Part shown: positions 8,176 to 33,492 of the stretch, piece by piece
How the letters are laid out: each line of letters begins with the position of its first letter
Position numbering within the stretch: the stretch's first letter is position 1
Assembly: GCA_965248265.1 (NCBI GenBank)
Contig: CBDFJF010000001.1
Coordinates: 1,312,001-1,376,000 of the forward strand
From: Candidatus Latescibacterota bacterium
GTDB lineage: Bacteria; Latescibacterota; UBA2968; UBA8231
Length of the DNA: 64,000 bases
Reading direction: 5' to 3'
The notes under the pieces: model-generated
What the model saw: only the letters and a program-made list of their open reading frames with translations
Told to the model about the DNA's origin: nothing
Database searches by the model: none
Program-made: the position numbers and the translations under genes

Positions 8176-10427
8176 CGGGCTCCTAGACCTTCCTCGAACA
8201 TCTGCTCCGCCCGCTCGCGCAACTCTCCGAAAATTTCCTCGCGCTGCAGGAGCATCCGGTGCGTCTGCCGCGCCTCCACGGCCTTTTCCGGTTCGCCCAT
8301 CTTGCCGTAGAGACGGCCCAGGTGATTGTACACCTGGGCCTCTTCCCCTTGCTGGATGAGGCGCTCGTACTGCTGAACCGCCTCGCTGTTGCGTTCTAGC
8401 CCTTCATAGGCGAGGGCCAGATTCCGGCGTGCGAGCACGTGACCCGGGGTTCTGTCTAGGACATGGGAAAACTCCGCAGCAGCCGCCGCGAATTCCCGTT
8501 GTCTCAGATAGTTGTATCCCAGATTGTTGCGCACATCGTCATGCTCGGGCCGCCGTTCCAGGAGCAGCAGGTACTCGCGCTCCGCTTCCACCCAGCGTCC
8601 CCCTTGCTGGTAGAGGACTGCAATATTGTACCTGGCGTCAAAATGATCGGGGTCAAGTTCCAAGACTTTCAAGTAGGATTTCTCGGCGGCCTCTGGGCGG
8701 TCCGCCAGACGCAGGGCCCCGGCCAGGCCATAGTGGGAGCGGGCAGTTGTCGGTTCGATTTCGACGATCTCCTCGAACAGGGCGACGGCCTCTTCAATTC
8801 CTTCCTGCCCGAGATAGAGATTGGCCAGATTGCGCCGGGGATCCGCCCTGTGCGGAAACAGCTCTGCCAACAGCCGGAATTGCTCTTGAGCCTCAGCGCG
8901 GTTATCGAGATCGACAAGGAGCTCACCCAACTTGAGGCGTGCATCGTAGTGACCCTCATCCAGGTCGAGGGCTTTTCGCAGCTCCAAGGTCGCCCTCGCC
9001 GGCATGCCCTTGCGGGCGTAGGCCAGCGCGACGTGGTATCGGTCCTGGGCATCGTCCGACTGCTTGATGGCTCTGGCATTCAACGGCCACGCAACAAGAA
9101 GGAGCAAACCCGCTGCCGGCAGCACGATGCGCCACTGCCGGGCTGACACCTGGTCCTTCAGCCACGCGCCGGCGTAGCAGGCCAGCAGGATCAGCAGTGG
9201 TATGGCGGGCAGACGGTAGCGGGCGGTCACGGAGAAGGCGATGACCGCCCCTGCATAACACAACACGAACAATACCAGCAGACCCGCTCGTCTCTCCACC
9301 ATGGCCAGCAGCAGGCCGGCCAGGGCCAATGGGCCCACGATGCCGAATGGGAAGGCCAGCCAATGATGCCACACCAGCCCGGCCAGCAAGTCAGAATGGG
9401 CCCGGGCAAAATAGATATCGGCATGACGCCGAATCTCTCCGCCCTGCCAGAAATCGAACGTTTTCGTGGCCAGCGACTGCAGATAGGCTGCCGGCTCCTC
9501 TCTGGCGAACGAGGTCGCCTCCCGCCAGAAGTAAGCCGATTGTTCGGAGGGTTTCTCCAATCCCTGCCGGACCGGCTGTCGGGTCAGCTCATCCCAATCC
9601 GCACCCGGTCCCAACCTGACCGTTCGCTCGTGATCCGGGTTGTTGCCCAGATAAAAACTCAAGCCCGAGTCCGATGAGAGCAGGACCAGGTCCGCACCCT
9701 TGTGGTGGTTTCGCCACGTCGTGCTGCCGATGACGAGAAGCATCCCCAGCGCCAGCAACAGGACGCGGCTGAGCCGGGCGGGTAGCCCCAGATCTGTGCG
9801 CCAGAATATCCATCCGGCCACGCCCAAACTGAAGAGGAGGACATGGGCAACGGCCAGGCCGGCCAGGCCCAGCAGGAGTCCAGCAGCAAGACACGCCCAG
9901 GGGGTTCTAACGGTACCGGGGCGAAGGAGAAAGAGTACGAGGCTCAAATTGAGGAGGATAGCCAGCGTCGGGGGCAGAAGTACCCCCTCGAAGTAGATCA
10001 GCGGTCCGTACACCGCAGCCACGGTCCCGGCCACCAGACCGATGCCGGGCGAGGAGAATACCCGTCGGCCGATCAGGTAGAGCAGCACGACGCTGAGCGC
10101 GCCCAGGGTGTGCTGGATCAGGCGGTAGACGTGGTAATCAGCCCCGAAGAGCCAGTATACTGCCCCCAGGAAAGCGGGATAGAGCGGCGGCCATGTGAAC
10201 GGCTCGTCTCCCAGGCTGAACGTCGCAGCGAGCTGTTCGGCTTGCTGGAAGTAGCTCTGGGCGTCCGCGACGGGGGCATCGAAGAACGGGCTCTGAGCAG
10301 CGATCTCGTGGAGGTAGAGCAGGCGCCAGAGAAGGGCGAAGGCGAACAGGACCACGGCGCCGTACCACGTTCGGCCCGAGCACTCCCGGCAAAGCCGTTT
10401 CGTCCTCCGGATCAGTCTGTCGAGCAA
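8172..10427 (-). CDS. GT-C fold (PMT/GT39-like) membrane glycosyltransferase fused to C-terminal TPRs
   Basis: Multiple TM segments, PVADAQSY, PPLYPAFLG, FYLGNNP, ARYRLP; TPR tail. Confidence 0.85.
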   Translation of the reverse strand: MLDRLIRRTKRLCRECSGRTWYGAVVLFAFALLWRLLYLHEIAAQSPFFDAPVADAQSYFQQAEQLAATFSLGDEPFTWPPLYPAFLGAVYWLFGADYHVYRLIQHTLGALSVVLLYLIGRRVFSSPGIGLVAGTVAAVYGPLIYFEGVLLPPTLAILLNLSLVLFLLRPGTVRTPWACLAAGLLLGLAGLAVAHVLLFSLGVAGWIFWRTDLGLPARLSRVLLLALGMLLVIGSTTWRNHHKGADLVLLSSDSGLSFYLGNNPDHERTVRLGPGADWDELTRQPVRQGLEKPSEQSAYFWREATSFAREEPAAYLQSLATKTFDFWQGGEIRRHADIYFARAHSDLLAGLVWHHWLAFPFGIVGPLALAGLLLAMVERRAGLLVLFVLCYAGAVIAFSVTARYRLPAIPLLILLACYAGAWLKDQVSARQWRIVLPAAGLLLLVAWPLNARAIKQSDDAQDRYHVALAYARKGMPARATLELRKALDLDEGHYDARLKLGELLVDLDNRAEAQEQFRLLAELFPHRADPRRNLANLYLGQEGIEEAVALFEEIVEIEPTTARSHYGLAGALRLADRPEAAEKSYLKVLELDPDHFDARYNIAVLYQQGGRWVEAEREYLLLLERRPEHDDVRNNLGYNYLRQREFAAAAAEFSHVLDRTPGHVLARRNLALAYEGLERNSEAVQQYERLIQQGEEAQVYNHLGRLYGKMGEPEKAVEARQTHRMLLQREEIFGELRERAEQMFEEGLGAR

Positions 10428-10465: not shown

Positions 10466-10885
10466 TCAGATCACGGCCTCGTGCTCGATGAGGACCCGAT
10501 CCGGATTCTGCCTCCCGGTCCCCGTCGTGGTGCCCGCCAGGTACTTAATTCGAACGGTATCACCCGGCTTGACCCGGAACAGCGTTTTTCGCGCCTCACC
10601 GACCTCGCCCTGGACCTTCTCGATGTTGACGTTGAAGCCGGGACTTTCTTCTTCTACCGGAACCGGGACGGCCTTCCGGGCATCGGCTCTGAGGGTGAAG
10701 TCCGCCGTCGTGCCCACCACCTGGATCCGGTAGATATTCTCAGGGGTTTCATTCAAGAACAGGATTTCGTCATCTTCCCCCCCACGGCTATCGACCAACT
10801 TCCTTCCGCCACAGTCGGATAGCGCGAACGACGAGAGCAGCACAGTCAGCAATACCATCACCTTGCCCATGACACGATCCTCCAT
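10466..10885 (-). CDS. Small hypothetical lipoprotein (beta-sandwich-like)
   Basis: Hydrophobic leader ending FALSDC; co-oriented between PPIase and GT genes; start could be 10891, 10885 or 10870. Confidence 0.65.
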   Translation of the reverse strand: MEDRVMGKVMVLLTVLLSSFALSDCGGRKLVDSRGGEDDEILFLNETPENIYRIQVVGTTADFTLRADARKAVPVPVEEESPGFNVNIEKVQGEVGEARKTLFRVKPGDTVRIKYLAGTTTGTGRQNPDRVLIEHEAVI

Positions 10886-10900
10886 TGTCACCTTGTGGGG

Positions 10901-13099
10901 TTACTTACTGGACAGGCTCTCGAAACGCTTCAGCATGGCTGTCGCTTCCTCCGCCTGGCCCTGCGCCGAGCGAAGTTGGGATAGATTGTAGTAAGCCTCT
11001 GCATAACCCCGATCGATTTCAACGGCCCGCTTCAGGGCCCTTTCCGCTTCATCGTGGCGTCCTGCGTCCGTATACAGTCCACCGAGCTCATTCCATGCTT
11101 CCTTGTAGGCTGGATTGAGCCTCAAAGCCCGCATCAGTGAATTTTCAGCCTCCTCGGGACGTCCTTGTTTGTTGTACAGGACCCCGAGCTCGTAGCGCGG
11201 TTCCGCGACGCTCGAATCGGCTTCGATGGCTTGCCACAGGGCCTTCTCCGCCTCCTCGTAGCGTCCCTGATTGGAATAAAAAAAGGACAACAGGCGGTGC
11301 GTGTAGGCGGATCTAACCCCTTCCAGGCGAAGGGCGTTTTCCAGTTCGGCGTACGCGGCCTCGAAGTTTCCGTCGGCCACGTGCGCCTGCGCGAGATCGT
11401 GCAGGCTGTCGCGGGTTGCCTCCTGTATTCGGGGATCGAGGGAGGAGTCATCCTCGGGAAGCCTTACGGCGCTGAGTTCACTCGCGAAGGTTTGCACCTG
11501 ATCCGCATACTTCTCCCGCACGTCTGCGAGCAGGCTGTTGAACAGCTGCTCCTCTGTCTTCAACCGAAGGTTGGCCGTCGCCCGAATTTTAGCCGCGGCG
11601 AATGGTTGCAATTTGCCCCCGCTCCTCTCCAGCACCCGGAAGACGGAATAGCCCTGCGGGACCTGCACTGGGCCAACGAGCTGACCCAACTCTGCGGCGA
11701 GCGCCTGGTCCAGCAGCTTCCCGTACCTGGCTCGCTGATACCCGTGTATGTGCAGATTCCCGTCCTCGGTACCGTGTCGTGTAGTCAGATGTACCAGGTC
11801 CTCAAACGGTTGCCCTGACTCCAACCGTTGACGCACGACGGTGGCCGCGTCCAGATCGTCCACGAGAATCTCCTGGATCGAGATCTGGTCAGGCTCGACG
11901 AACATGTCGTGGTGATCCAGGTAGAACCGCCTGGCCTCCTCCTCGCTCACCTCCACCTGGTCGCGGAGCGACGTCCGCAGAGCCATGAGCAGGAGCTTGA
12001 CCTCCTTGCGTTTTTTCCACTCGAGCGCTTGGGGGGTCTCTTGATACTCCAGCTTCCGAGACGCCTCCCAAATCATGATGTCGGGCACTACCCAGCTCCA
12101 GGCGGCCTCCACCACGGCGACACTGTCCCCGAGCGCGGGCATGCGTCGACGCTGGCGAAACGCCCAGTCGTAATCGCCGACCGTTATTTCTCCCCCTTCG
12201 TAGGTAAACAGCGTGGTGGCCGCCTCGGCGGGCGTGAGCTGTGGACGGGACGTTCCACCAGGCTCCTTGCCTACCAGGATCGCCAGTCCCTCCGGTTTCA
12301 GCGAAAGGCCTGATTCGTAGGCCAGCTCCTCGACCAGAGCCCGCCGCGCGACCGTCTGTTTCTCCAGCCCCAGATCGGAGCTCACTCTCTGACGGTTCCT
12401 GGGTGAGCTACCTTCCCGCTCATCGGTGAAGCGGATGAGGAGATAGTCACCGCCCGACGGCAGCGGCTCCGAGACTTCACCCAATTCCAGCTCGCGGAAG
12501 AGTTGGACGGGAATACCCCATCGGCGGACCGCGGATCCGTAGACGAAACCGAATTCCCCACCCTTTTCGGCATTGCGCTCGTCTATCGAGTGGAGCCGGG
12601 CCAGCTCGGCGAAATCAGCCCCCTCTTCCAGGCGCTGGCGAATCCCGGTGACCTGCTCTTCGGCCTCCACAACTATCCAGCTCAGGAGCCTCTGGCGGTC
12701 GAGCCCGTCTCTGACGAGACGCGCCTGCACTTCTTGCTCGGTGATGCTGACGAGAGGACTGAGGTGGCGTCTCTCGTAGTGATCGACGATGTGCCTGCGA
12801 AAGGCATATTCGTAGTCGGCCTGAACAGTGCTGGTGGTGTCGATGCCGCGAGAGCGGGTTTCGAGTACGAGCAGCTTTTCGTCGATGAGCGTCTGCAGGT
12901 AGTCGCGGCGGGCTGCATCCCCGACCTTTTTGCTGCGCAGTCCCGGCAACAGCGAAGCGGCGAACTCCTCGACTTCGCGCCGGTCGATGGACTCCTCGCC
13001 GACCCGGGCAACGACTGGAGTGACCTCTGCCTGCTCGCCGGGAGGCGCATCGGCGCAGGCGACGACGAGGAGACAAGCCGGAGCTATTTTTCGAATCAA
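10901..13099 (-). CDS. SurA/PrsA-like lipoprotein with two parvulin (PpiC) domains and C-terminal TPRs
   Basis: LVVAC lipobox; VVARVGEESI; FAELARLHSID..AEKGGEFG; second domain EILVDD...GPVQVPQGYSVFRV; TPR tail; GAGG RBS before TTG. Confidence 0.85.
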   Translation of the reverse strand: MIRKIAPACLLVVACADAPPGEQAEVTPVVARVGEESIDRREVEEFAASLLPGLRSKKVGDAARRDYLQTLIDEKLLVLETRSRGIDTTSTVQADYEYAFRRHIVDHYERRHLSPLVSITEQEVQARLVRDGLDRQRLLSWIVVEAEEQVTGIRQRLEEGADFAELARLHSIDERNAEKGGEFGFVYGSAVRRWGIPVQLFRELELGEVSEPLPSGGDYLLIRFTDEREGSSPRNRQRVSSDLGLEKQTVARRALVEELAYESGLSLKPEGLAILVGKEPGGTSRPQLTPAEAATTLFTYEGGEITVGDYDWAFRQRRRMPALGDSVAVVEAAWSWVVPDIMIWEASRKLEYQETPQALEWKKRKEVKLLLMALRTSLRDQVEVSEEEARRFYLDHHDMFVEPDQISIQEILVDDLDAATVVRQRLESGQPFEDLVHLTTRHGTEDGNLHIHGYQRARYGKLLDQALAAELGQLVGPVQVPQGYSVFRVLERSGGKLQPFAAAKIRATANLRLKTEEQLFNSLLADVREKYADQVQTFASELSAVRLPEDDSSLDPRIQEATRDSLHDLAQAHVADGNFEAAYAELENALRLEGVRSAYTHRLLSFFYSNQGRYEEAEKALWQAIEADSSVAEPRYELGVLYNKQGRPEEAENSLMRALRLNPAYKEAWNELGGLYTDAGRHDEAERALKRAVEIDRGYAEAYYNLSQLRSAQGQAEEATAMLKRFESLSSK

Positions 13100-13111
13100 G
13101 TGGTCCTCAAT

Positions 13112-15967
13112 TCACTCCAGCCCGGCGAAAACGCTGATAAAGGTGGTCTGTATGTTCCTGGCCGGACCGTTCTCAGGATCGCGCCGGTCGAACTTGACCC
13201 CCATCTGAGTACTCAGTTTGTAGCCCAGATAGTCCCCCGTGTTGGTGAACTGCACGGCCAGGACGCGACTGTTCTGATCGTTGAGATCCTCCCTCAGATC
13301 CCTGAACTGGATGTACTCCACACCTGCTTCGACAAAAGTCCTGTTCAGGATCGGGTAGCGACCGAGCAGGGAGAACAGCTCCATGAGATTTTCGCGCTCA
13401 CCCACGTTGGCATGATCGCGCGTCTGGTTCCGGTACTCGCTCTTCCACCTCGGCTCCAGTTCCAACAGGCCCAGATCGAACTCGTAGGCGACTTTGTTGA
13501 TGACGCCGAAAAAATGCTCGTTCTGCAGCTGGTTGCGAATTCTGCGATCCTGCCTGTCGAGCTCAGTGTGGGTCAGGTCCCACTTGACCGTGTTGATGAA
13601 GCGCAGGTTACGCATGCCGGTGTAGTCGAAATTCAACCACAGGCTGTTGTGCCAGGCGTCCTCGAGCAGGAGCGGGTCGGTGATGTTCAGCGCTTGCCCT
13701 TCGGACTCGGGGGTCTGGTAGGCCCACTGGAGCAAGTTCTCGCGAATGTTGTCCTGGGCGCGCTTGACCATGTCGAAGACGCGCAGTCGACCGAGCCCAG
13801 GATAGTCGCGGTCGAGAGTGGCGAGCAGGTAGTTGGTCTCGTTGTCGCGGTTTTCCGAGATGAGGCGCTCGTCCATGCGGCCGACGATCACTCGAAACTC
13901 CGGGGTGATGTTGGCGCCGCCGTAGATATTGTAGCCTCGGTGATCCCGTCGATAGGGATAATCGGGCTCGTTGTCGTTCTCGAACCGGTCTATCCAGCCG
14001 TTGTTGTTCATGTCGGGACCGAAGAGGAATTCTGGTCTGTCCACGTTGAAGCGGAGGAAGGGCTCTTCGTAGTCTGGAAAGTCGTTGCGTCGTGCGCTGG
14101 CGCGGTTGTCGTTCTGGTTGAAGTCGGAGATGAAGTCGTTGTTTTCGTCCCATCCGGGGAATATCTCGAAGTCGCCGTTGCCCGCGCCTTTGCGCGCCAG
14201 GTCGGGAAACCGGTCCTGATCGTCGTTGTCGTCGACGAATTCATAGAAGTCGCGCGGGTCGCCGTAGTCGACGAACCCGGTCCTTGGCGCCCCTGTCGTG
14301 GTGACCGCCGTGGTGGAGTAATCGTGGTCCATGCTGAAGGCTTCACCAAACAGGAAAAATGGATAGGTCTCTTTGGAGACGTTTACCATCCAGGCCTCGG
14401 CGCGGCGATCACCCTCGATGCCGGAGAATGCGTCGTGGGTGATCAGGTTGGCGTTGGGGTACATCCTGTAGCTGTAGGACACGTCGTACTCCCCAAAGAC
14501 GTTGAAGCCGAGCACGTCCGTCACTTCGATGGTGCCGCCGACGACATGGGTGGCCGTGGGCAGGCCGTAGTCGAAGATGAGCAGGCGCAGATTGGAATTG
14601 TCCTGGACGTTGCCCTCTGCCCGGGCCACGAGCCGTGGCGCTGGTTGCTCTGCCTCCGAGCCCCCCCCGCCCACGTGAGTGGTCTGGCGATTGGAGTTCA
14701 CCCAGACCTGGTAGTCATTGCCGACCGGCACCTGGAAGCGGACCCTTTCGATCTCCGATTTGTCTCCGCGAGCATTGTCCACGAAGCCTGCGGGGCCCGT
14801 GCTGTTGAAATCGTAGCGCACGCTGATCTCCTCACCGCCATCGGCGGCCCGGAAGCCGGTGCGCTCGAACCCGCCCTGGATCACCGGCTCGAAGCCGATC
14901 TGCCTGGCGGTCTCCTGCTCTCCATCGATGTAGGTGATGATGAGATCGGAGCCTCCCTCGAAAAAGGAGGCCCCTCCCACGCCGTCTTCCGGGGAGTCGT
15001 CCTTCAGGATGAGCTCGACCCATTCTACGGGGGACGCGTTCTGGTCCTGGGTCAATTCCCCCTTGATCAGACTGGCTTCGAAACTTTCCAGATCGGTGTG
15101 GGACTGATGTGCGTTGACGAAAGTGGCGCCGAGCTTGATGAAATCGCCCAGCTGGGTGGTCACCCGTCCGCCGAACAGGGTCGTGTTGTTGGTAAGCTTG
15201 CTAGGAGCAAGGGTTTCCTCGCCGCCGGTCCGGTTGATGCGGGAATAGATGACGGTGGCTTCGTACTTGTCGGAGGCGAAGTCCCATTGCAGACCGTCGA
15301 AGGCGGGCTTGGCAAAGGTCATCGGCGTGAGAATGGTGCGCAGTTGGTGCCCGATGCTCAACGACGTGTGGTACTGGCCCTTGTGGTCCGAAGCGATCAC
15401 GAGGCCAGAGAACCAAGTTCTGAACTTTTCGTCCTTGTAGAGTGAATTGCCCAACTGGGCCTCGGGCTGATCCTGGCTGTGGTCGTAGATCAGCCAGCCT
15501 TTGGAGATGAAGTTTCCGTAGAGATCGTAGTAATAGTCGCCTTGGATCCCGACATCGACGTAGCGTTGGAAGCGTTGACGGGCGTAGTTGGTGTACTCCC
15601 ACTGGCGCCAGCGGTATTCTTCGTGGAGCTCGCCCGGCAGGTACCATTTGCGCATGGCCGGATCGAGAGAGGTCGTGAGCACGCTGGTACCCTGCGGTTG
15701 ATAGCTCCAGACATCCGCCTTGCGGATGCCCAGGCGCGTGCCATAATCCTGCTGCGCGAGGGCGGGACCGGAAACCGCGATGACGGTCAGGGCGAAGATT
15801 GCCTCGCGGCGTAAGTACCTTGCCACGAGGTGCGCGCCGCGAGCGCGGATGGATTCTACCGCGCTCAACGGTGATGGACTTGCGCTGCGAGGCACTACAG
15901 CAGCACGGTTGGAAAAAGTCGGTCTTCTCAAAACAAACCCTCCTCTGTATACCCTTAGATCCCTCAA
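13112..15967 (-). CDS. Large exported protein, probable outer-membrane beta-barrel with Asp/Asn-rich Ca-binding loops
   Basis: Signal peptide ending ALA-QQ (true start probably GTG 15826); amphipathic aromatic-rich strands at both ends; DDNDDQDRFPD, DENNDFISDFNQNDN, DMNNNGWIDRFENDNEPD. Confidence 0.75.
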   Translation of the reverse strand: MRDLRVYRGGFVLRRPTFSNRAAVVPRSASPSPLSAVESIRARGAHLVARYLRREAIFALTVIAVSGPALAQQDYGTRLGIRKADVWSYQPQGTSVLTTSLDPAMRKWYLPGELHEEYRWRQWEYTNYARQRFQRYVDVGIQGDYYYDLYGNFISKGWLIYDHSQDQPEAQLGNSLYKDEKFRTWFSGLVIASDHKGQYHTSLSIGHQLRTILTPMTFAKPAFDGLQWDFASDKYEATVIYSRINRTGGEETLAPSKLTNNTTLFGGRVTTQLGDFIKLGATFVNAHQSHTDLESFEASLIKGELTQDQNASPVEWVELILKDDSPEDGVGGASFFEGGSDLIITYIDGEQETARQIGFEPVIQGGFERTGFRAADGGEEISVRYDFNSTGPAGFVDNARGDKSEIERVRFQVPVGNDYQVWVNSNRQTTHVGGGGSEAEQPAPRLVARAEGNVQDNSNLRLLIFDYGLPTATHVVGGTIEVTDVLGFNVFGEYDVSYSYRMYPNANLITHDAFSGIEGDRRAEAWMVNVSKETYPFFLFGEAFSMDHDYSTTAVTTTGAPRTGFVDYGDPRDFYEFVDDNDDQDRFPDLARKGAGNGDFEIFPGWDENNDFISDFNQNDNRASARRNDFPDYEEPFLRFNVDRPEFLFGPDMNNNGWIDRFENDNEPDYPYRRDHRGYNIYGGANITPEFRVIVGRMDERLISENRDNETNYLLATLDRDYPGLGRLRVFDMVKRAQDNIRENLLQWAYQTPESEGQALNITDPLLLEDAWHNSLWLNFDYTGMRNLRFINTVKWDLTHTELDRQDRRIRNQLQNEHFFGVINKVAYEFDLGLLELEPRWKSEYRNQTRDHANVGERENLMELFSLLGRYPILNRTFVEAGVEYIQFRDLREDLNDQNSRVLAVQFTNTGDYLGYKLSTQMGVKFDRRDPENGPARNIQTTFISVFAGLE

Positions 15968-16007
15968 GCTCCTGTTTACCGTGCACGCCCGGCGATGAAG
16001 GCTTTCG

Positions 16008-17960
16008 TCAATAGACGACGGCGACCGTTCCCAGAACCTCTTCTGATTTGACGTCCGCTTTTACCTCGAGCTTGAGCAGATAGAGTCCGGGTGGCACGAG
16101 CCGATCGTCAGCGTCGGTGCCGTCCCACAGTACGGGGTGGCGACCGCTCTCGATCTCGCCCGCGAACACGACGGCGATGCGGCGGCCGGAAAGATCGTAG
16201 ACGACGACCTCGACGGGTGTCGCCTTGGTGAGCTTGAAGACGTCGAAGCGGATTTCGGCGCTATCGTTGATGCCGTCGCCGTTGGGGGTGAAGGGGTTGG
16301 GCACCGCCTCCACAGCGCCCATCAGAGCCACCCCCGCGATGTCGGTGAGAACGGTCAGGTTCGAGCGCTTGTCCTCATCCTGGAGGTTCAGCCCGGGAAA
16401 ATCGCCGGTGAGAACCATGGCGTTGCCGGGAACCGCAGGCTGGGGCAGCTCATCAGATCCCTCGCTCGACCCCCATCCGTCGAATTCGATGCCGTAGCGC
16501 AGAACCGATGTGTCGAAGCGGAGTTTCAGCACGGAACCATCTTCCGTGATGGGCGGAAAACGGACCAGGAAGCGGTTGGGATCCACGGATACGAGGGCCC
16601 ATTCTGCCTCCTCGTCTGGGTAGGGCAACGATAAACCGGCCACGTCTACTTCGAAAACCTGTTCGTCCAGGATGTCTCCCTGTGCATCGAGCTTCTGAAT
16701 CTTTTCGAGGCGCTCGATGGGGGCCGAGGTCCGGATCTCGAAGGTGTCGAATCCGCCTTCGGAAGGCTCAAAGGCCTGCACCGCGTAGACGAATTCTCTG
16801 CTCTCCCCGATTTGCGCCTGACGCGGGAAGATCTCCGCGACGAGTTGCTGGGCAACCGGCGGTGAGTGCTCGAAGGAGAGGGAATCGACCCTTTGCGCCG
16901 CCTCCAGGTCCTGGCTTTCGAAGCGGATCTCGAATTGGAAGAACTGCCGCGGGGCCGGCGACGTGATCTGGATCCCTTCCCCGTCTGCGGCCGGCCGATA
17001 GGGCTCCGACCAGGGACTCCAGAACCGCGAATTCGCGCTGCTGCGGGTGCGCACCGAAATGCCGGATTTTTCGGGACCACCGATGGCGCCGGCCGACCAG
17101 TGAATCCGGCCGAACAGTGCGCCCCGTTCGCCCTCCTCTCCCCAATCGTCGGGGCCGAAGGGCCGGGACAGGTAGCTGCCGGCCGTCACATAGCCGCTGC
17201 CGAAGAGCTCGATCTCGTCGATCTCGAAACCGCCGAGGTACTGGGACGTCAGGCGCAGGTGCTCGACGAATTGGACCGGTATGTGCATCACGGCCCGGGC
17301 CCGCGTGTTCTGCCGTTCGTGGAATCTGGCGGTGACGTTCCAGTCGGGCCTGCCCGATTCTGAGAGATTGCTCGTGCCGTCGTTGACCTGGATGTAGTAG
17401 GCCCTGAGATACTCGCGGGGAAAAAGAGAGCTCGGATAGAAGACGATGCGATTCAAGCCGAGCGGTGCGCCCAGATCGATGTCGATGTGCTCGCCAAAGG
17501 TCGAATCGGAGATCTTGCGGTCATAGACCTCCAACGCGCCACCCGACGAATACTTGGTGCCGTTGATGATGTTCTCCAGGGCCTGTTGCAGTATCTCGGC
17601 GCTTCCCCGCGGCGGCCTGCCGAGGGGACTGTTCGGAGAGGTAATACTGACTCTCCCCCCGCGGGCGCGAATCTGCGTAAATAGATCGACCTCGGGGTCG
17701 ATCTGGATCGGCACGATCCAGCCGGGCTCGGCGGCGGAATCGATGAGGTTTCCAGGGGAGCTGCCGTTGCCTGCCCAGGGGTTCTCGACCCCGCCGATGA
17801 CGACGGTGTCCAGCGCCAGGCTCCCGTGGACGAAGAAAATGATCGACCCGATAAAGCAGCAGCCAGCGATACTGCGGTGACGGGGAGCCGGAGGACAGGA
17901 TGTCCGAGGACAGGACGTCCTCGGCCTCGGGCAGCTAGTAGACGACGGAGACGATGCCAC
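16008..17960 (-). CDS. Secreted discoidin-like + FlgD-Ig/CHU_C-tail protein (paralog 3)
   Basis: IDLGAPLGLNRIVFY..EIDEIELFGSG; WSPWSEPY..SPAPRQF; PNPFTPNGDGIND..VYDLSGRRI..WDGTD..VPPGLY..VAVVY; in-frame GTG 17960 chosen over 18065. Confidence 0.82.
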   Translation of the reverse strand: MASSPSSTSCPRPRTSCPRTSCPPAPRHRSIAGCCFIGSIIFFVHGSLALDTVVIGGVENPWAGNGSSPGNLIDSAAEPGWIVPIQIDPEVDLFTQIRARGGRVSITSPNSPLGRPPRGSAEILQQALENIINGTKYSSGGALEVYDRKISDSTFGEHIDIDLGAPLGLNRIVFYPSSLFPREYLRAYYIQVNDGTSNLSESGRPDWNVTARFHERQNTRARAVMHIPVQFVEHLRLTSQYLGGFEIDEIELFGSGYVTAGSYLSRPFGPDDWGEEGERGALFGRIHWSAGAIGGPEKSGISVRTRSSANSRFWSPWSEPYRPAADGEGIQITSPAPRQFFQFEIRFESQDLEAAQRVDSLSFEHSPPVAQQLVAEIFPRQAQIGESREFVYAVQAFEPSEGGFDTFEIRTSAPIERLEKIQKLDAQGDILDEQVFEVDVAGLSLPYPDEEAEWALVSVDPNRFLVRFPPITEDGSVLKLRFDTSVLRYGIEFDGWGSSEGSDELPQPAVPGNAMVLTGDFPGLNLQDEDKRSNLTVLTDIAGVALMGAVEAVPNPFTPNGDGINDSAEIRFDVFKLTKATPVEVVVYDLSGRRIAVVFAGEIESGRHPVLWDGTDADDRLVPPGLYLLKLEVKADVKSEEVLGTVAVVY

Positions 17961-19992
17961 TGTGGTTTTCGTTCCTCTCGTCCGTCTCGACCGAAATCCG
18001 GTAGATGTAGATTCCCGGAGGCACGAGCCTGCCATCATCGTCGCGCCCGTTCCAATTCTCGCCATAGGTACCGCTGACCAGCGGCTCGCTCTGCAGCTGC
18101 CTCACCCGGCGCCCGGTTAGATCGTAGATCGCCAACTCGGCCGCAGCGACGTCCGTCAGGTTGAGCAGAGCATAGGACAGCACCGTCTCATCGTTGATGT
18201 CATCCCCGTTGGGCGTAAACGGGTTCGGCTGCACCTGCGCCTGACTGACCAGCTCTTCGCTCAAGGGGATGGTCACCACGACCCCCCCTCCACTGTAGCG
18301 ATCGATGGCATCCCCGCCGTCCACGAGCTGTCGCACTTCGTCGCCGCCATCGATGAATATGCGGCCCTTGAACTCCGTGCCGAATTTGACCACGGAGGCG
18401 TCGAACACCACCTGCACCCGCTTCCCGTTATCGGCGACTCCCTTGAGAGTGTCGAAGTGCACGACCAGACGATCGTCCTGGATCTCCGCATTCGGGTGGG
18501 TGTCGTCCGGGTGAAGAAGGCACGGTGCACAGATGATCTTGTCAGTGCCCGCGCTGTCAATCCGCACCAGACGCACCGCCGAAGGCTGCACGAACGTCTC
18601 GATCTCCAGGCTGTCGAAGCCGCCATCGGTGTCTCCCAGTTCGGGCAGAAGGGTGTAGGTGAAGGTGGTGTCTACCGCCGCCGGCACTTCCTTCGGGAAG
18701 ATCTCGGCGACGGCCCGGCCGGCACTGGGCGGCTTGGAAAAGTCGAACCCGATCGCCTCCAGGCGACTGCCGTCGCTGATCGTGGGAGTAAAATCGATGC
18801 GGAACTGGATGTAGCGCCGCGGCCCGGGTGAAGCGACGGGCACACCCTCGGCTCCCTTGTCGAAATCATAGGGCGTCGACCAGAAGCTCCAGTTTTCGTG
18901 GTCGTAGGTGATGGGACCGAGCTGTGCACTGTAATCCGTTTTTTTCCGTTCTCTTCCTTGGGTTCGCCCGTAATCATCTAGCGTCAATGGCTCCCCGTCA
19001 TCCGAGAAAGTCGACAATTCGTCGCCCCGCTCGGTGAACACGGAGTAGACGCTGGGGTCGGGACAGCCGCCGAAAACGCTCCCTTGGCGGTCGCATGCGG
19101 CGCCCTCCGGCGTGTCCTCGGCGCGACCTGTGCGGGTGCGGATAATGGTGCGGGCATTCGGGTCCCGCGTGCCGGTCCAGTAGAGCCGGCCCCAACTGGC
19201 CAGCTCACCGGAATTCGCAGGCCCCACGTCTTCGATGTCGAAGATCTTGGAGATATAGGTGGCTTCGGGCACGTAGCCGTCGCCGTAGATCTCGAACTCG
19301 GCGAGCTGCCAGGTTTTGTTAGGGATCAAGACGCCGGCCCTAAAGCGCTCTACGACCTCCATGTAGACTTCTCGCCCGCGCAGCAGTGGAAAGGTAACTT
19401 CCACGCTGTCCTTCTTGTTGTCGAGCTCGTCGCGGACCAGTTCCCCGTCGACGTAAAGTCTAAAAACATCGACGTACTCTTCCGTGGAGTCCGGGTGCGT
19501 GAAGAAGAGGATCCGATTGATTGGGAAAATGGCTCCCAGGTCCACGGTGGGCCGGGGTGTTCCCTCCGGGCCGCCGATATCGCCCCGGTAATTGTAGACG
19601 GTGGTGGTGTCTCCATCCAGGGCGCGATCGAAATGCCCCGGGGTGCGCTCAAAAATCCGCTCCCGTTGCCAGCCACCCCGCTCTAAATAACCCAGAGAGA
19701 GGTTGAAGTCCGGCGCGATTCTGATCGGCATCACGTGGGTCTCGGAAAAGTCCAGACTGACGATTCCCCCAGACGCCTCGTTGTATTCAGGGTAGAGGTC
19801 TGCCTCCAGACGCCCGGCCGCCTCGATCCAGGTGCGGCTGTCCACTGTCAGCGCCGGGGCGTCGGCTGCCCAGCTCTCGGCCGATTCGGGGTTGCCGATC
19901 ACCAGCATAGTGCGCGAGTGCAGGCTCGTGGCGCCGGCAAGGCCGATGACCAGGCAGGCCAACCCATAGACGAAACTCCTCCTCGCACGCAT
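17935..19992 (-). CDS. Secreted discoidin-like + FlgD-Ig/CHU_C-tail protein (paralog 2)
   Basis: Signal MRARRSFVYGLACLVIGLAG; VDLGAIFPINRI..LAEFEIYGDG; WSFWSTPY..SPGPRRY; PNPFTPNGDDIND..WNGRDDDGRLVPPGIY..VSVVY. Confidence 0.85.
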   Translation of the reverse strand: MRARRSFVYGLACLVIGLAGATSLHSRTMLVIGNPESAESWAADAPALTVDSRTWIEAAGRLEADLYPEYNEASGGIVSLDFSETHVMPIRIAPDFNLSLGYLERGGWQRERIFERTPGHFDRALDGDTTTVYNYRGDIGGPEGTPRPTVDLGAIFPINRILFFTHPDSTEEYVDVFRLYVDGELVRDELDNKKDSVEVTFPLLRGREVYMEVVERFRAGVLIPNKTWQLAEFEIYGDGYVPEATYISKIFDIEDVGPANSGELASWGRLYWTGTRDPNARTIIRTRTGRAEDTPEGAACDRQGSVFGGCPDPSVYSVFTERGDELSTFSDDGEPLTLDDYGRTQGRERKKTDYSAQLGPITYDHENWSFWSTPYDFDKGAEGVPVASPGPRRYIQFRIDFTPTISDGSRLEAIGFDFSKPPSAGRAVAEIFPKEVPAAVDTTFTYTLLPELGDTDGGFDSLEIETFVQPSAVRLVRIDSAGTDKIICAPCLLHPDDTHPNAEIQDDRLVVHFDTLKGVADNGKRVQVVFDASVVKFGTEFKGRIFIDGGDEVRQLVDGGDAIDRYSGGGVVVTIPLSEELVSQAQVQPNPFTPNGDDINDETVLSYALLNLTDVAAAELAIYDLTGRRVRQLQSEPLVSGTYGENWNGRDDDGRLVPPGIYIYRISVETDERNENHSGIVSVVY

Positions 19993-20085
19993 GGTGCTAG
20001 TGCCGTGTCTCAGACGTAGGCTTGTGAAGTGAGGGCGTCGAGGCATCTGAATACAGGCATTGAGACACGTCACTCGATCTCCTTC

Positions 20086-23000
20086 TCAGTACGCCACGCT
20101 GACGAGGCGGACCGCCGAGTTGTCCGAGCCCACGTCGCTGTCCACGTGGACGCGGCACAGATAGAGCCCAGGCGCCACGAGCTCCCCTTCGTCGTTGTGA
20201 CCGCCGCGGCCCTGCCATACCAGGACCCGCTCACCGCCCGCTTCCTCACGGGACACCACTGCGACCTCGACGCCGGCCAGGGTGAAGAACCGGGCCTCGA
20301 TCCGGCGTGGCGCATCGATATTCGTCACGGAAAGCACGAGCCGCACCCGATCGTTGATGCCGTCGCCGTTGGGAGTGAAGGGATTCGGCGTGATCTCCAC
20401 ACCGGACAGCACCCGATGGTCGTCGATGGGGGTGAAAATGGCCGCCCCTTGACCGTCGATCTTCTCTATGGCGTCTCCGGGGTCCGCCTTCTGCCAGAAT
20501 TCGGGCATACTCGTATCGACAACCTCCGAGTTGGCCACCTCGGCGGAGAAGGTCGTGCCGCTCACGAAGATGCGGGAGCGGAAACGCAGCTCCACCACCT
20601 CACCCTCGCGCAGCACCGGCCCTCTCTGCTGGCTGCCCAGCCGGTTGTAGCTGGCCCGGTTCAGGGGCTCGCCGTCGTTGTCGAGCGCCACCTCTTCGCC
20701 GTCGAAGAGCACGCGATAGTAGCGCACCAGCCCCTGGGATTCAAAGGGAAGTTCGTTGTAGTCGCCCGCATCCACTTTGCGCAGAGTCTGGGCTCCACTC
20801 TCAGGATCGGTCGCCGTCACCTCGAAATAGTCGATGCGGCCCTGCTCTTTGACCGGGTCCAGTGGCAGCTTGCTCCAGGCCGCCTCGGTGAGTACACCGC
20901 CGGATTTGTCCAGCGGGGCTTCATCCCCCGCCCTTGCGATGCGCTGGTAAATGGGGGCGCTGTCGGCGTCGTAGTCGACGAGGCGCGGCAGTTTTATCCA
21001 CAGGGTGTCGGCCGTGCGGGTCGGGACAATGTCGAGGGGATCCCCCGCTGAATTGAAGAAGCCGCCCTCAACATCGCCCGTGAACACCTCGACTTCATCA
21101 TCTGCGACGCTTTCTTCGTCCTTCTTCACGAGTGCGTCCCTTCCGCCGACGCGCACCTCTATTAATTCCATTTCATTTTGATGCGACGCCAGCACCCGGA
21201 CCTCGTCGAAACGGCTGCTCGCATCCGGCTCGTCGTCTCGGAAGAGCGGCCGCACGAAGACGGAGAACGTGTCCGGCACGACGCTGGCGACATCGACCTG
21301 GGGGGTGACCTCCGCCAGGACCTGGCGCGCGAAGGGATCGGTGAAGTGGACGATGATCGAGTCCAGGGTGGCAACGGCATCGGGTCGGTCGGAAACCAGT
21401 CTGGCCTCCAGTTTGAGGAATCGACGCGGCGAGGGCGAGATGAATCGGTCTCCGGAGTGCTCGTACGCCCTGCTCCAGGCGCTCCAATCCACTCCCGGGG
21501 CAGAGGTCGCGAGAGAATCGCCTCTGTCACTGTCTCTGGTCCTCCGGTGCCAGTACTTGTCGCGGGTCACTTCTGTTCCATCGGTGAAGAACCACCGCCA
21601 CTCAGTCTTGACTTCGTTGCCGGTTTGCGTGCGGACTTCGATGCGGGTCCCCGGAGGGGTGTCGCCGACCCATTCCACCCGTGTCAGGGCGCGCGCCTGC
21701 CGCTGGCCTCTGCTGTCCTTGAACTCGATCAGCGGCGACGTGAGCGTCACCTGCGCGACACGGCCCTCTCCGAACACTTGCATTTGGCGGATGGCGACAT
21801 GCGTGGAAGGCGACGTGTTGGAGCCGTCGAGGTGGACGAATTCGATAAGGCGGGTTCGCAACGGTTCGAAGCGCTCCTCCGTATAGAAGAATTCGTCTGT
21901 GGTCCCGTTGCGTTCGCGTTCAGGTGGCGAGATCCTGTTCCAGAGCGGGGACCCGTCTGAGGCGGCGGAACCGTCTGAAACCCGGACTGTCCACCCCCAG
22001 AGTTCGCGTGGTGGTTGGCCTCTCTCCGATATCGGGTTAGCCAGGATGCGGAAGGTGTCCACCCAGAACAAGGCCCCCAGATCGATGATGAGCGGCCCAC
22101 CCCATTCTGCCCGGGGTTGTCCTGGTCTCAGGGCGAGGTAGAGGTAGGCGTCCCAATCGTCCAAGAAGCTGCCATTGAAAGCATTTGGCGTATTCTGGTC
22201 TTTGATGCCCCGAGGGGTAATTTGGCCACCCCTCTCGAGAATCCCGAGCGCTATGTTGTCGCCGACCGTGATGACCTGCACGTCGGCGAGGCGCGGGCGT
22301 TCCTTCCGATAGTAACGCACTGTACCCAGGCGCCCGGGCTCCTCTGTCTCGATGGTCTCGTACGCTTCGCGGGTCGTCAGAACCTCCTCGCCGTCAAAGC
22401 TCTTGAGATAGTACTCGATTCTCCCCTGCTCTTCCCGCGACAGGTCGTCTTCATAGACCTCTCGGCTCACTTCCTCGGCCCGGTCCAGGTTGCTGTCGGT
22501 CACGACGATGCGGACGTACTGTATGGGTGTGCCGGTGAAATCGGCGTCAGCCTTCGCGTCCGGTTCGAGGACAAACTCGAACTCCCGCTGGTCCCGATTG
22601 CCCCGCGTCGTGCCCCCGACGACGCGGTAGTCCAGCGGCCGCACAGCGCTCTCATACTTTAGCAACCCGGTAGAGACCAGTACCCGGAACTGCAGGAAGG
22701 GATCCCCAAGCTCTTCGTCGACGAAGCGCAGGATGATCTTTTCGGCCGAAACCAGCCGGCCCAGGTCGAATTCGATCCACCACTTGAACGAGGGCTCGTC
22801 CAGGTCCGGCTCCCAGTAAGACTCGAAGCGGTCGTCATCCCGGTCGATGACATTGCCCGCAAGCTCCAGGTTGGAGCCGGCGTTCTTGATGCCGCCAGGC
22901 GCTCGCGGACCCTCGAGGACGGTTATGAATTGGTCCTGGTCCTTGGCATCGATAATGTGGGTGAAGCTGGGCGCATCGGTGACCGCATCCACCTGCTTGC

Positions 23001-23268
23001 GGAATTCGCGAGGTACTATCAGGGCATTGGGGCCGCCGTCCTTCATCTGCACTTCCAGAACGTCCTGGCGGACCTCATCGATCGGTTGCTCCAGATTCCC
23101 CAGTTGCCACTGACTCCAGTGGCTGGCCGTGTTGACGGTGATCTGCCGCTTCTGGATGTCGATCCGGTAACCCTGGGTGAAGCCCGGATTCGACCAGACC
23201 AGCAACATCGCGGCCCCGAGGAAAGCGGCCCCCTGGGCCGCCCTCGTCATGGTGGGAAATCCGTACAT
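20086..23268 (-). CDS. Secreted double discoidin-like + FlgD-Ig/CHU_C-tail protein (paralog 1)
   Basis: Signal peptide; WWIEFDLGRLV and LIIDLGALFWV; WSAWSRAY..SPSPRRF; PNPFTPNGDGIND..VAPGLY..VSVAY. Confidence 0.85.
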   Translation of the reverse strand: MYGFPTMTRAAQGAAFLGAAMLLVWSNPGFTQGYRIDIQKRQITVNTASHWSQWQLGNLEQPIDEVRQDVLEVQMKDGGPNALIVPREFRKQVDAVTDAPSFTHIIDAKDQDQFITVLEGPRAPGGIKNAGSNLELAGNVIDRDDDRFESYWEPDLDEPSFKWWIEFDLGRLVSAEKIILRFVDEELGDPFLQFRVLVSTGLLKYESAVRPLDYRVVGGTTRGNRDQREFEFVLEPDAKADADFTGTPIQYVRIVVTDSNLDRAEEVSREVYEDDLSREEQGRIEYYLKSFDGEEVLTTREAYETIETEEPGRLGTVRYYRKERPRLADVQVITVGDNIALGILERGGQITPRGIKDQNTPNAFNGSFLDDWDAYLYLALRPGQPRAEWGGPLIIDLGALFWVDTFRILANPISERGQPPRELWGWTVRVSDGSAASDGSPLWNRISPPERERNGTTDEFFYTEERFEPLRTRLIEFVHLDGSNTSPSTHVAIRQMQVFGEGRVAQVTLTSPLIEFKDSRGQRQARALTRVEWVGDTPPGTRIEVRTQTGNEVKTEWRWFFTDGTEVTRDKYWHRRTRDSDRGDSLATSAPGVDWSAWSRAYEHSGDRFISPSPRRFLKLEARLVSDRPDAVATLDSIIVHFTDPFARQVLAEVTPQVDVASVVPDTFSVFVRPLFRDDEPDASSRFDEVRVLASHQNEMELIEVRVGGRDALVKKDEESVADDEVEVFTGDVEGGFFNSAGDPLDIVPTRTADTLWIKLPRLVDYDADSAPIYQRIARAGDEAPLDKSGGVLTEAAWSKLPLDPVKEQGRIDYFEVTATDPESGAQTLRKVDAGDYNELPFESQGLVRYYRVLFDGEEVALDNDGEPLNRASYNRLGSQQRGPVLREGEVVELRFRSRIFVSGTTFSAEVANSEVVDTSMPEFWQKADPGDAIEKIDGQGAAIFTPIDDHRVLSGVEITPNPFTPNGDGINDRVRLVLSVTNIDAPRRIEARFFTLAGVEVAVVSREEAGGERVLVWQGRGGHNDEGELVAPGLYLCRVHVDSDVGSDNSAVRLVSVAY

Positions 23269-23300
23269 ATGGCGTCTACTGACTCCCTCGCAGAGCGTAT

Positions 23301-23338
23301 AAGGAAAACGAGGGAGGTCGTGGAGCCCCTCCCTCGTT
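23301..23338 (-). terminator. Rho-independent terminator/attenuator after the TWG-tail gene
   Basis: Perfect 11-bp stem AACGAGGGAGG (23307-23317) / CCTCCCTCGTT (23328-23338), ending in TTTTCCTT on the minus strand. Confidence 0.7.
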
Positions 23339-23393
23339 CCGTATCCTCAGAAAAGATTGCGCCTGATCGTGTTGATCGGCCTCAACCTGAAAA

Positions 23394-24260
23394 CTAGAAC
23401 CGAGACTTCAAGCGGCCCCAGGTGTTGGACTCCACCGCCGTCATCGTGCCGCCCCCGGCGGGGGTGATATCTGTATCCAGCTCGAAATCAGCAGCTCTGT
23501 CGCCGTGTGCACATGGTGCTCCGAGGTACCACCAGCCGTCGTTCGCCCAGGTGCCGTCGGCAATCTGTTCGGCCTCGCTCAGGTGGGCGTCGTCGTCCGT
23601 GACGATCATGTCCCAACCGATAGTCTCGCCCGGATCGAGCGTGGACTGGATAGAGCCGGTGTCGTTTCCGTCGCCATCCCTCTGCAAGTCGTCCCAAGGT
23701 GTGAATCTGACTTCGTAGTAATACGTGCTCTCGCCGAACTCCTCGCCGATGAAGGACGTGGCGAATTCGAAGTGCGCCGGCTCTTGGTGAAACCCGGTGG
23801 CCGGGGTATGGTCCGCACCCTCTAGCGGAGGTACCGAGATGTTCCACCATCCGTTACCGTAGTCGAAATCGCTGCCCGAGTGATCGCCGTCGGTGTAAAA
23901 CTCGATGTTGTCGTCAAAGCAGGTGCAGTTATTGGGGGTATCCCTCACGTGGAGCTGGTCGAAAACCCAGGCGGCCTGGTACAGCTGATCGCTGTTGGCG
24001 TTGTAGCCTCCGTACCAGCCAAAGTCCAGGTCGGCCTTGTCGATCCCACCCCCCGGCCTGTCAGCGTAGGCGTTCCCGGCGGCATCCTCGATCAGAATGT
24101 GGAAATAATCGGGAAGCGCCGTCCACTCGCTTATATCCCCATCGATGGTGGGCAACCCATCGTCCGGAAACTGAATTGCCAGAAATTCGCCCCCTGAGTG
24201 CGCCGACGCCGATACGGCCATGAGGGCCACGGCCAACGGCAGCAAAAGAAGCTTCTTCAT
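23394..24260 (-). CDS. Secreted DOMON/CBM9-like sugar-binding protein with C-terminal TAVESNTWGRLKSRF tail
   Basis: GAGGAGG RBS; MKKLLLLPLAVALMAVSASA signal; PTIDGDISEW, DDNIEFYTDGD, YYYEVRFTPW, IGWDMIVTDDD. Confidence 0.82.
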   Translation of the reverse strand: MKKLLLLPLAVALMAVSASAHSGGEFLAIQFPDDGLPTIDGDISEWTALPDYFHILIEDAAGNAYADRPGGGIDKADLDFGWYGGYNANSDQLYQAAWVFDQLHVRDTPNNCTCFDDNIEFYTDGDHSGSDFDYGNGWWNISVPPLEGADHTPATGFHQEPAHFEFATSFIGEEFGESTYYYEVRFTPWDDLQRDGDGNDTGSIQSTLDPGETIGWDMIVTDDDAHLSEAEQIADGTWANDGWWYLGAPCAHGDRAADFELDTDITPAGGGTMTAVESNTWGRLKSRF

Positions 24261-24309
24261 TATGCGACTACCTCCTCGGTGTTGGTTGAGACATGGAAAA
24301 TTGATTAGG

Positions 24310-24351
24310 TAACTGTGACATACATTAACTGTGACATACATTGTGATACAT
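24310..24351. repeat. Perfect 16-bp tandem repeat TAACTGTGACATACAT x2 plus degenerate partial copy
   Basis: 24310-24325 is identical to 24326-24341, followed by TGTGATACAT. Confidence 0.9.
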
Positions 24352-26737: not shown

Positions 26738-26755
26738 ACTTTACAGAGGTTGACA

Positions 26756-28435: not shown

Positions 28436-28473
28436 AACCCTTAGCTAGGCTTTCCAATACAAGGGAGACTGGC

Positions 28474-29817: not shown

Positions 29818-30626
29818 AACACTTCGATCTTGTCGGCCTCCTTGCCAGGTACTGTTTCGGGATCGAGTGCGTTCTCGCCGAAGACTACCGGAAAGCTCAT
29901 GCCCGAATCCAGCGTGCGGGTCGCCGCATCGACGAAAATCACGGCGAAGGCGCGGCGGCGCTCCTCAGAAAGGTTTACGCCCGAGCGGTGGAGGAGATAA
30001 TTGTGCAGTAGAATGGCCTCCCCGGCTTCGGCTTCCAGATCGGTGATGTCCTCTTCGGAGATGTACTCAGCCTGCTCTTCTGGTGAGGGGAAGTGCTTAT
30101 CGTTGATGATGCCGTGCTTATGGCTGCCTGGCACGATCTGCATACAAGCATTTGCCACCGTGGCATCATCCAGGGCGATCCAGACGGTGACGAAGGGATT
30201 GGTGTCGATACCGAAGCCTGTACCTACATCCTGGTGCCAGTTTATTTGGGTGCCGGCCCCGGTGACCTTGTTCATGAACATGGAGCGAAAGACCGAGACG
30301 TCCTCACCGATGTAACGCCTGGTGATCTGGCGATAGAGAGGATGCTGCATGTAGGCTAGAAAAACGGGATCTTGCTCGAGGTCATCGATTCGTCGGTATT
30401 CGAGGGAACGCTCGGTGTTGCCCCTGGTCCGGTGCAATTCCCCGGTGCTGCTGTCGTGAAACTGGAAGCGCATGTTCTCATACTCGACACGGCCCAGCAT
30501 GATATCGTCCATGCGTTGCTGTAGAGCCTGGAATTCATTTGCAGGCAGCACCTTCCCCAAGCGGAGAAACCCGCGCTCCATGAACTCCTCGTGCTGCGCG
30601 TCGGTAAAGCTCGTTTGTGAGGTCAT
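29808..30626 (-). CDS. Phytanoyl-CoA dioxygenase (PhyH) family Fe/2OG oxygenase
   Basis: WHQD, VWIALDDAT, VPGSH, LLHRSGVN..RRA. Confidence 0.92.
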   Translation of the reverse strand: MTSQTSFTDAQHEEFMERGFLRLGKVLPANEFQALQQRMDDIMLGRVEYENMRFQFHDSSTGELHRTRGNTERSLEYRRIDDLEQDPVFLAYMQHPLYRQITRRYIGEDVSVFRSMFMNKVTGAGTQINWHQDVGTGFGIDTNPFVTVWIALDDATVANACMQIVPGSHKHGIINDKHFPSPEEQAEYISEEDITDLEAEAGEAILLHNYLLHRSGVNLSEERRRAFAVIFVDAATRTLDSGMSFPVVFGENALDPETVPGKEADKIEVFYG

Positions 30627-30785
30627 CTCCGAAATCTCCTAATCTCGCATTTGAGATCGATCTTGCGAATATATACGGGTGAGAGATCAACCGGTAGATC
30701 ACACATGTTTTTTCGGCTGCGGACAAAGTAAGCGGGTATTATCATCCCGATGCGGACCCGTCAGTTCAATCAGAGAAAGGTTGAA

Positions 30786-31496: not shown

Positions 31497-31534
31497 CGGA
31501 CTCCTTCAAGGGCCTTCCCCGCCGGTCTATCTGA

Positions 31535-33490: not shown

Positions 33491-33492
33491 CG

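Follow-up and report, generated by a model that had tools for sequence, protein, structure and literature searches.

What do a few tightly packed genes for exported proteins build around a large outer-membrane barrel that belongs to no named family? The question is raised by a 64,000-nucleotide stretch of the genome of a Candidatus Latescibacterota bacterium (assembly GCA_965248265.1, contig CBDFJF010000001.1; hereafter the window), in which seven co-directional open reading frames (ORFs), named A to G, occupy positions 10466-24260 of the minus strand in the ORF listing. The original prediction took them for a surface machine, unlike any characterised system, whose barrel exports or anchors a heterotrimer of lectin-like subunits. 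Our analysis showed that the cassette is real and undescribed in the open-access literature: no paper on the combination of E with B, C and D, and no characterised system with this gene set, was found there, supplements excluded. The barrel, E, recurs together with three paralogous proteins, B, C and D, that carry similar C-terminal tails. The reading we favor, to which we give about an even chance, is that the T9SS (type IX secretion system) exports B, C and D and that E holds them at the cell surface as a glycan-binding complex.

The genes lie where they had been predicted, all features of the cassette described below being on the minus strand. They are separated by 143 bp (A-B), 93 bp (B-C), -26 bp (C-D), about 76 bp (D-E, assuming a TTG start of E at 15931), 12 bp (E-F) and 30 bp (F-G), so that every gap is at most 143 bp. 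Export signals, signal peptides and lipoboxes, were judged by eye with orthologues as a guide, rather than with a predictor. The same-strand run continues unbroken beyond 10466 down to 1235, with 38 bp between G and a further gene, H, followed by genes for an ASPIC/FG-GAP protein, a TPR protein, a 406-aa ORF and an ankyrin-PQQ protein.

The source genome (7.3 Mb on two contigs, C1 and C2, 92% complete) holds about ten copies of the gene set, with the gene order shuffled between them. It encodes 13 close copies of E, including the window copy (38-53% identity), and five distant ones (24-30%). Within 10 kb of a barrel we found 26 of the 33 ORFs bearing the tail of B, C and D, these 26 even within 6 kb, 7 of the 8 F genes, 6 of the 7 H genes and 9 of the 13 A genes, as well as 11/34 DUF6785 and 6/25 ASPIC genes; the figure for random positions is 4%. 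Only 2/75 of the other tailed ORFs lie that close. The order A-B-C-D-E-F-G-H, with a divergent DUF6785 gene, recurs in two relatives (G072 and G092), and in five other families E stands beside tailed genes in 14 of 15 distinct loci, the exception being a distant-barrel triplet. In G092 the orthologue of E is divided between ORFs of 188 and 769 aa (L028, 2123-4999).

Further related loci were drawn from the best 80 of 622; 79 were examined, of which 61 have full 8-kb flanks, and they come from few genomes, mostly close kin, and are not independent. A tailed gene is present in all 61 full loci, exactly three are present in 51, and in 56 a tailed gene lies directly upstream of E (B in 40, D in 16). 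Within 8 kb the F family occurs in 54 of these loci, H in 37, A in 31 and DUF6785 in 25. The named relatives of E, with loci limited to the best 80 of 622, belong to Latescibacterota and Handelsmanbacteria or to records titled Gemmatimonadetes, with single short-contig records titled Bryobacterales and Pirellulaceae. Synteny in relatives, which the original prediction had named as one of its tests, thus holds in G072, G092, the five other families and the 61 full loci. The seven-gene set as a unit, on the other hand, did not survive: the conserved core is E with B, C and D, usually with F and often with A and the GT-C/TPR gene H. G, DUF6785 and ASPIC were rejected as obligate parts, being present in 0, 26 and 13 of the 79 loci.

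The distribution across the phylum follows the same lines. Of 151 Latescibacterota genomes, 94 were found to have E, 89 the B/C/D core and 145 the T9SS translocon SprA. All 89 core-bearing genomes are among the 94 with E; five have the distant barrel class only, and 57 have neither. Three families of the same class (53 genomes) contain no E, core or tail, while 52 of the 53 have SprA. The tail profile matched none of these 53 genomes and 10 of 10 barrel-positive ones; among the other four barrel-less genomes, two have borderline, partial tail matches (59 bits). SprA accompanies E and core in 85 of 89 genomes, and the four misses are drafts of 75-88% completeness. The cassette is thus a module whose parts come and go together, over a T9SS that is present in any case.

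E (13112..15931; mature protein of 880 aa from 15754) had been noticed as a protein of about 900 aa with amphipathic strands, and its structure model, built from 114 sequences, folds as an outer-membrane β-barrel and not as a soluble protein (pLDDT 79.1, pTM 0.80). Strand count and sidedness were read from the secondary-structure string of the model, not from its coordinates; they give 23 long strands over residues 118-878, and from the arrangement of short and long turns one further strand is expected before residue 118, for a total of about 24. Two large inserts are predicted to be extracellular. The first (mature 220-397; 14564..15097) is a β-sandwich. The second (mature 476-604; 13943..14329) is an Asp/Asn-rich loop with four Dx[DN]x[DN] motifs, which probably binds Ca; it is the best-conserved segment of E. 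The N-terminal 100 residues form a short, aromatic and conserved segment modelled mostly at pLDDT below 50, which also holds for the conserved residues 1-71, mostly at pLDDT <50.

No family match to the E sequence was found in Pfam, NCBIfam or PDB sequences, and PDB sequence searches with E and its profiles, with the B/C/D core and with A returned nothing credible. E is nevertheless not rare: 884 relatives were recognised among 7998 scored candidates, and 405 cluster representatives at E-values up to 1e-30. All top matches in fold searches are membrane barrels, none of them close (TM at most 0.25), and in fold alignments no match stands out above other barrels (Z at most 13.8, rmsd 4-13). A DUF6029 lead from Atlas (0.88) was dropped, with no Pfam match in 76 members of the E family, and homology of the insert of E to the core or tail of B, C and D or to A was rejected (hhalign probabilities at most 0.3%). 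The sandwich insert also occurs without a barrel, as a stand-alone domain in an additional lipoprotein of the source genome (350 aa, C2:2001778-2002830, 125 bits). The signal-peptide n-region of the window copy of E carries an in-frame 99-bp insertion (15803..15901) that is absent from orthologues and structured (about -42 kcal/mol); the only two other copies of this element in the genome, at C2:1823690-1823786 and C2:1334056-1334118, both lie at cassette genes.

B (20086..23250, tail 20089-20433), C (17935..19992, tail 17938-18270) and D (16008..17960, tail 16011-16346) had been described as three paralogous discoidin proteins with FlgD/CHU_C-type tails. Their paralogy is borne out by sequence, with 23-34% identity over shared stretches and a common C-terminal region of 400-450 residues, and the CBM32/discoidin fold by the model of D. 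Pfam F5/8 matches in the three proteins, among them the long, discoidin-like B, are weak, and CHU_C matches C (40.2 bits) and D (30.5) above the cut-off and B (15.8) below it. The model of D (pLDDT 87.8) comprises a split base domain with an inserted CBM32-like domain, followed by an Ig domain and the tail. The inserted domain (residues 43-216) aligns with several CBM32s at Z of about 13 (VIA-align). The tail (residues 501-607) aligns with the CTD of PorU over 99 residues (Z 12.7, rmsd 2.4) and with that of PorZ (Z 10.7). The best listed fold matches of the base domain are phage tail proteins (Z 12.1 for 9nwi, and 10.7), a likeness to phage tail assembly that we treat as a lead only.

The tails share the motif PNGDG…VxY. 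When the tail profile was run on the tailed ORFs of the source genome, 33 scored at least 81 bits, and all 33 end in Tyr; the remaining 75 score at most 51 bits and end mostly in K, R or Q. A terminal Tyr is found in 199 of 200 tailed proteins of related loci. The profile TIGR04131, which describes the type B CTD of the T9SS (cut-off 35), gave 14 matches in the source genome, all within this class of 33 and only one above the cut-off (36.2 bits). A quick tree of 64 tailed proteins, made without bootstrap or clade test and excluding ORFs <550 aa or under score thresholds, separates a B clade of 23 rows (SH-aLRT 99), a D clade of 16 (99) and a C clade of 19 (97), with 6 of the 64 rows outside the three. 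In each clade several cassettes and at least three families are represented, so the B/C/D triad predates the cassette copies. The tailed proteins thus form three stable role clades, as expected of a hetero-complex.

How could such proteins reach and stay at the surface? The closest parallel is with type B cargo of the T9SS. According to an excerpt of PMC12618676, such cargo in Bacteroidota depends on its cognate PorP/SprF barrel, commonly encoded directly downstream, and an excerpt of PMC9143113 describes these 14-stranded barrels as anchoring the uncleaved cargo at the surface. The type B pairs named in the excerpts of these two papers (SprB-SprF, Fjoh_3952-3951 and PG1035-PorP-PorE) likewise involve a CHU_C-like tail. 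The cassette shares with them a tailed gene with the barrel gene directly downstream, numerous paralogous pairs in one genome and TPR proteins nearby, and SprA, a PorV family (13 matches) and three PorU genes are present in the source genome, all above cut-off. It differs in several respects. E, with about 24 strands and two large inserts, contrasts with a 14-strand FadL-type barrel and has no match to PF11751 or the PorV profile. Each locus has three fixed cargo clades instead of one cargo. The tails end in Tyr, have a seven-strand PorU-like fold and mostly fall below the TIGR04131 cut-off. The cassette has dedicated parvulin and GT-C/TPR genes, and its host lies outside Bacteroidota and has no PorK/L/M/N motor that we could find (GldK was not searched). 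The cassette therefore resembles a type B cargo/shuttle pair and falls outside that group on its barrel.

With SprA, PorV and PorU in the genome and CTD-like tails on the subunits, anchoring of T9SS cargo is a simpler explanation than a new export pore, and a layout like that of a type B pair with a different barrel favors T9SS export followed by docking on E. All parts of the cassette would be exported via Sec. F, a SurA/PrsA-like lipoprotein, would help to fold E or the cargo, and B, C and D would cross the outer membrane through SprA. E would then stand in for the 14-strand PorP/SprF barrel, as cognate shuttle or anchor, with the tail remaining uncleaved. One B, one C and one D would act together, A, made in excess, would accompany them as an abundant binder, and glycosylation of the surface parts may be the role of H. 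The ten or so diverged copies would provide ten binding specificities. Of the prediction that the barrel exports or anchors a heterotrimer, the barrel, the synteny and the three role clades stand, while the T9SS genes and CTD-fold tails weaken the case for a new export pore.

Several observations weigh against this mechanism. E is far larger than the 14-strand PorP/SprF barrels and unrelated to them by profile, which leaves docking to SprA unexplained. TIGR04131 stays below its cut-off of 35 in C (25.7) and D (20.7) and does not match B. The tail profile also matches FlgD and an internal PNGDG domain of streptococcal C5a peptidases; the PNGDG motif is therefore not specific to the T9SS. Seven of the 33 Tyr-tailed ORFs lie >13 kb from any barrel, and some loci have two or three barrels per B/C/D triad. 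About ten PorV-like genes elsewhere in the source genome are possible shuttles. Furthermore, GldL and GldN were not found in this 92%-complete genome, with controls silent and GldK not searched, and GldM reached 20 bits against a cut-off of 180, in an unrelated locus. Finally, the absences of the cassette fall mostly in three sister families and hence represent few independent events, and SprA is near-universal in the phylum, so that co-occurrence with it says little.

The original prediction had asked for a check of SprA, PorU and the motor genes; SprA and PorU turned out to be present, and GldL and GldN gave no match and GldM stayed below cut-off, with controls silent. The PorP/SprF profile had no match in the source genome either, with controls silent, and no PorV-like gene was found in the 101 cassette stretches searched. 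One source-genome cassette ends two genes before a PorV-like gene, and at C1:1813-1834 kb a cassette runs into PorV-like, long TPR-like and (by eye) ExbB-like genes on the same strand. SprA, PorV and PorU without any PorL/M/N found hint at a differently powered T9SS. An excerpt of PMC11285876 reports T9SS genes as possible in other FCB phyla.

The lead gene A (23394..24260) bears on how much of each part is made. It encodes an exported protein that had been read as DOMON/CBM9-like with a TWG tail. The tail is there, as TAVE..TWG.LK at the C-terminal end TAVESNTWGRLKSRF. The CBM9 label comes from Atlas features alone, the nearest clusters carrying CBM9_1 in 13%, 37% and 100% of their members, and no Pfam match was found. 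The strict tail pattern TAVE..WG.IK occurs in 45 of 51 distinct A proteins. Tags of the type [ST]WGxIK, mostly after TAVE, end 40 ORFs of the source genome, 10 of the A family and about 30 unrelated to A; this range of carriers marks the WG-type tail as a general tag. A few of the 30 non-A ORFs are probably spurious. The tag is far shorter than the type A tails of Prevotella, which, although short, still span 43-55 residues in an excerpt of PMC11969387. A is a frequent yet not obligate member of the cassette.

Between A and B lies a stem-loop with a short U tract (23304..23340, -22.3 kcal/mol). A hairpin of -22 kcal/mol or lower follows 27 of 29 A genes in related loci, compared with 12/198 tailed genes, although the first count includes loci where A is the last gene and the hairpin a simple terminator. 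In the source genome the figures are 7/13 for A-family ORFs and 1/33 for tailed ORFs, and the hairpin stands between A and the next cassette gene in the window and three other cassettes. The stem-loop likely raises the A transcript over those of the downstream genes, and given this position A would be an abundant product.

Genes for major subunits are often followed by a hairpin, and this parallel is one of several that fit another mechanism, in which E is an export pore independent of SprA that reads the Tyr tail, passes the folded B, C and D and assembles them, with A as the major subunit. We consider this distinctly unlikely. The barrel is of usher size, and FimD aligns over most of it (9bog, Z 12.0, rmsd 5.3, 319 residues), at a Z not above that of unrelated barrels. 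A dedicated chaperone accompanies E in 54/61 loci, the tail class tracks E and not SprA, and the terminal Tyr is invariant, as opposed to the K/R ends of most other CTDs of the genome; the resemblance of the D base domain to phage tail assembly proteins, if the lead is good, and the motor that was not found would also suit an export pore. On the other hand, the tail has the fold of a T9SS CTD, SprA is present wherever genomes are near-complete, and the two large inserts with the N-terminal segment could fill the lumen.

Chaperone-usher systems (FimD/PapC) combine a 24-stranded barrel with periplasmic C-terminal domains and a PapD-like Ig chaperone. E is similar in strand number (23 long strands and one inferred) and in having an inserted β-sandwich, and the cassette is likewise an operon in which genes for a chaperone and for paralogous subunits go with a lead gene that has a hairpin behind it. 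Unlike in an usher, nothing follows the barrel of E, its last strand being residues 866-878 of 880, the insert is predicted on the outer side, the chaperone F is a parvulin, with no PapD match in any cassette gene, and the subunits are multidomain proteins of 600-1050 aa with CTD-fold tails. No CsgG lipoprotein pore or curlin repeats occurred among the family matches of the cassette genes either, and E is a single-chain barrel. The analogies to chaperone-usher and curli systems that had been proposed thus fail on architecture.

Could E instead admit nutrients? B, C and D, by whatever route they are exported, together with A would then capture glycans at the mouth of the barrel, and oligosaccharides would pass inward, which is compatible with the reading we favor; we regard it as unlikely in itself. 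The CBM32-like and CBM9-like folds agree with such a role, as do a barrel much wider than an anchor requires and an aromatic N-terminal segment of 100 residues that could serve as a plug. DUF6785 membrane proteins are enriched near barrels (11/34 within 10 kb against a background of 4%; 25/61 loci), although 23/34 lie far from them, and in the window the divergent DUF6785 gene is followed by GHL10- and GH42-like genes. Two ExbD genes adjoin the triplet of distant barrels. However, among the 30 commonest neighbour clusters of the 79 loci, where labelled, no hydrolase, ExbD or TonB family recurs, and F and H, the partners that do recur, are of biogenesis type.

In SusC/SusD utilisomes a TonB-dependent receptor with a plug works beside the lipoprotein SusD. 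The cassette resembles them in its many diverged copies per genome, in its large barrel with partners of glycan-binding fold, and in the putative permease and glycoside hydrolase genes near some loci. It differs in that the partners carry secretion-type tails rather than lipid anchors, and no Pfam or NCBIfam match to TonB-dependent receptors or SusD was found on E, on 76 scanned relatives or on any cassette gene.

The distant-barrel triplet, at C2:1322-1337 kb, consists of three tandem barrels after two ExbD genes, with a type A-tailed protein and a Tyr-tailed discoidin protein; it may link the family to energising by the proton-motive force. The most far-reaching view would join export and uptake and make E an outer-membrane machine of a new class: it would recognise a Tyr tail of its own and export or assemble a fixed heterotrimer of B, C and D, with abundant A, into a surface organelle that captures glycans above the pore. 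Such a non-SusCD system of uptake and display would be present about tenfold per genome and define the lifestyle of much of Latescibacterota. We entertain it tentatively, as a minor chance.

A last alternative places the same proteins beneath the outer membrane. The tail would be a docking domain of the FlgD Ig type, B, C, D and A would be periplasmic and bind E from inside as a structural complex or one that organises the envelope, and E would be a remote relative of SlpA-type barrels. PNGDG-type Ig domains inside Gram-positive proteases speak for it. Distant members of the E family match SlpA_C over one stretch of four strands and 75 positions, at best with 30.2 bits against a cut-off of 35, and SlpA ranks 2-4 in the Foldseek search of E. 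The stretch covers about 75 of 656 profile positions, maps to mature E at about 380-500, and was seen in 2 of 28 distant members and in 15 of 48 of a second set chosen partly for that match. E itself matches neither SlpA_C nor SLH. Against it, the tail domain is found strictly at the C-terminus and its last residue does not vary, lectin folds suit a surface location, and divergence among ten copies is easier to reconcile with variable ligands than with a structural tether. We find this alternative improbable.

According to an excerpt of PMC9388160, SlpA/OmpM-type barrels such as that of Deinococcus carry an N-terminal SLH domain and a coiled coil. With Deinococcus SlpA, as described there, E shares a very large barrel, acidic insertions of metal-binding type and the weak local profile match over four strands. 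It differs in having about 24 strands instead of 30 and neither SLH nor coiled coil, and all its family's profile matches lie below cut-off.

The accessory genes differ in how closely they belong to the cassette. F (10901..13099) had been called a SurA-like double-parvulin lipoprotein, and its two parvulin (Rotamase) domains are confirmed by Pfam and NCBIfam; about 170 aa of C-terminal TPRs had been overlooked, and the F paralogues of the source genome (ORFs of 564-682 aa) align to residues 1-544 only. G (10466..10870), a small lipoprotein, proved to be an accessory of one cassette sub-type and not a core member, with homologues in 3/40 relatives, no paralogue in the source genome and none in the 79 related loci. 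H (8172..10427), a GT-C/PMT-like membrane protein with TPRs, lies outside the span first described, where it had been missed, and is a commoner member than G.

Just upstream of A, positions 24300-24345 hold a 16-bp direct repeat, present in two complete copies and one partial copy, within the AT-rich promoter region common to A and the divergent DUF6785 gene; it is a possible operator. The flanking genes at 24827-38749 (two DUF6785/DUF6784, GHL10- and GH42-like genes, a PhyH dioxygenase and two DUF4838 genes) make up a catabolic-looking neighbourhood. Farther away, at 51623-55653, two tandem paralogues carry carboxypeptidase-regulatory-like and FlgD-Ig domains near the N-terminus and not at the C-terminus.

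The barrel family is unnamed in Pfam, NCBIfam and PDB, yet it is present in 94 of 151 Latescibacterota genomes, in many copies. If the reading we favor is true, a barrel with no relation to PorV or PorP can be the destination of T9SS-type cargo, and this in a phylum for which no T9SS motor was found. Should E conduct solutes as well, these uncultured glycan users would have a means of polymer uptake besides SusC/SusD.

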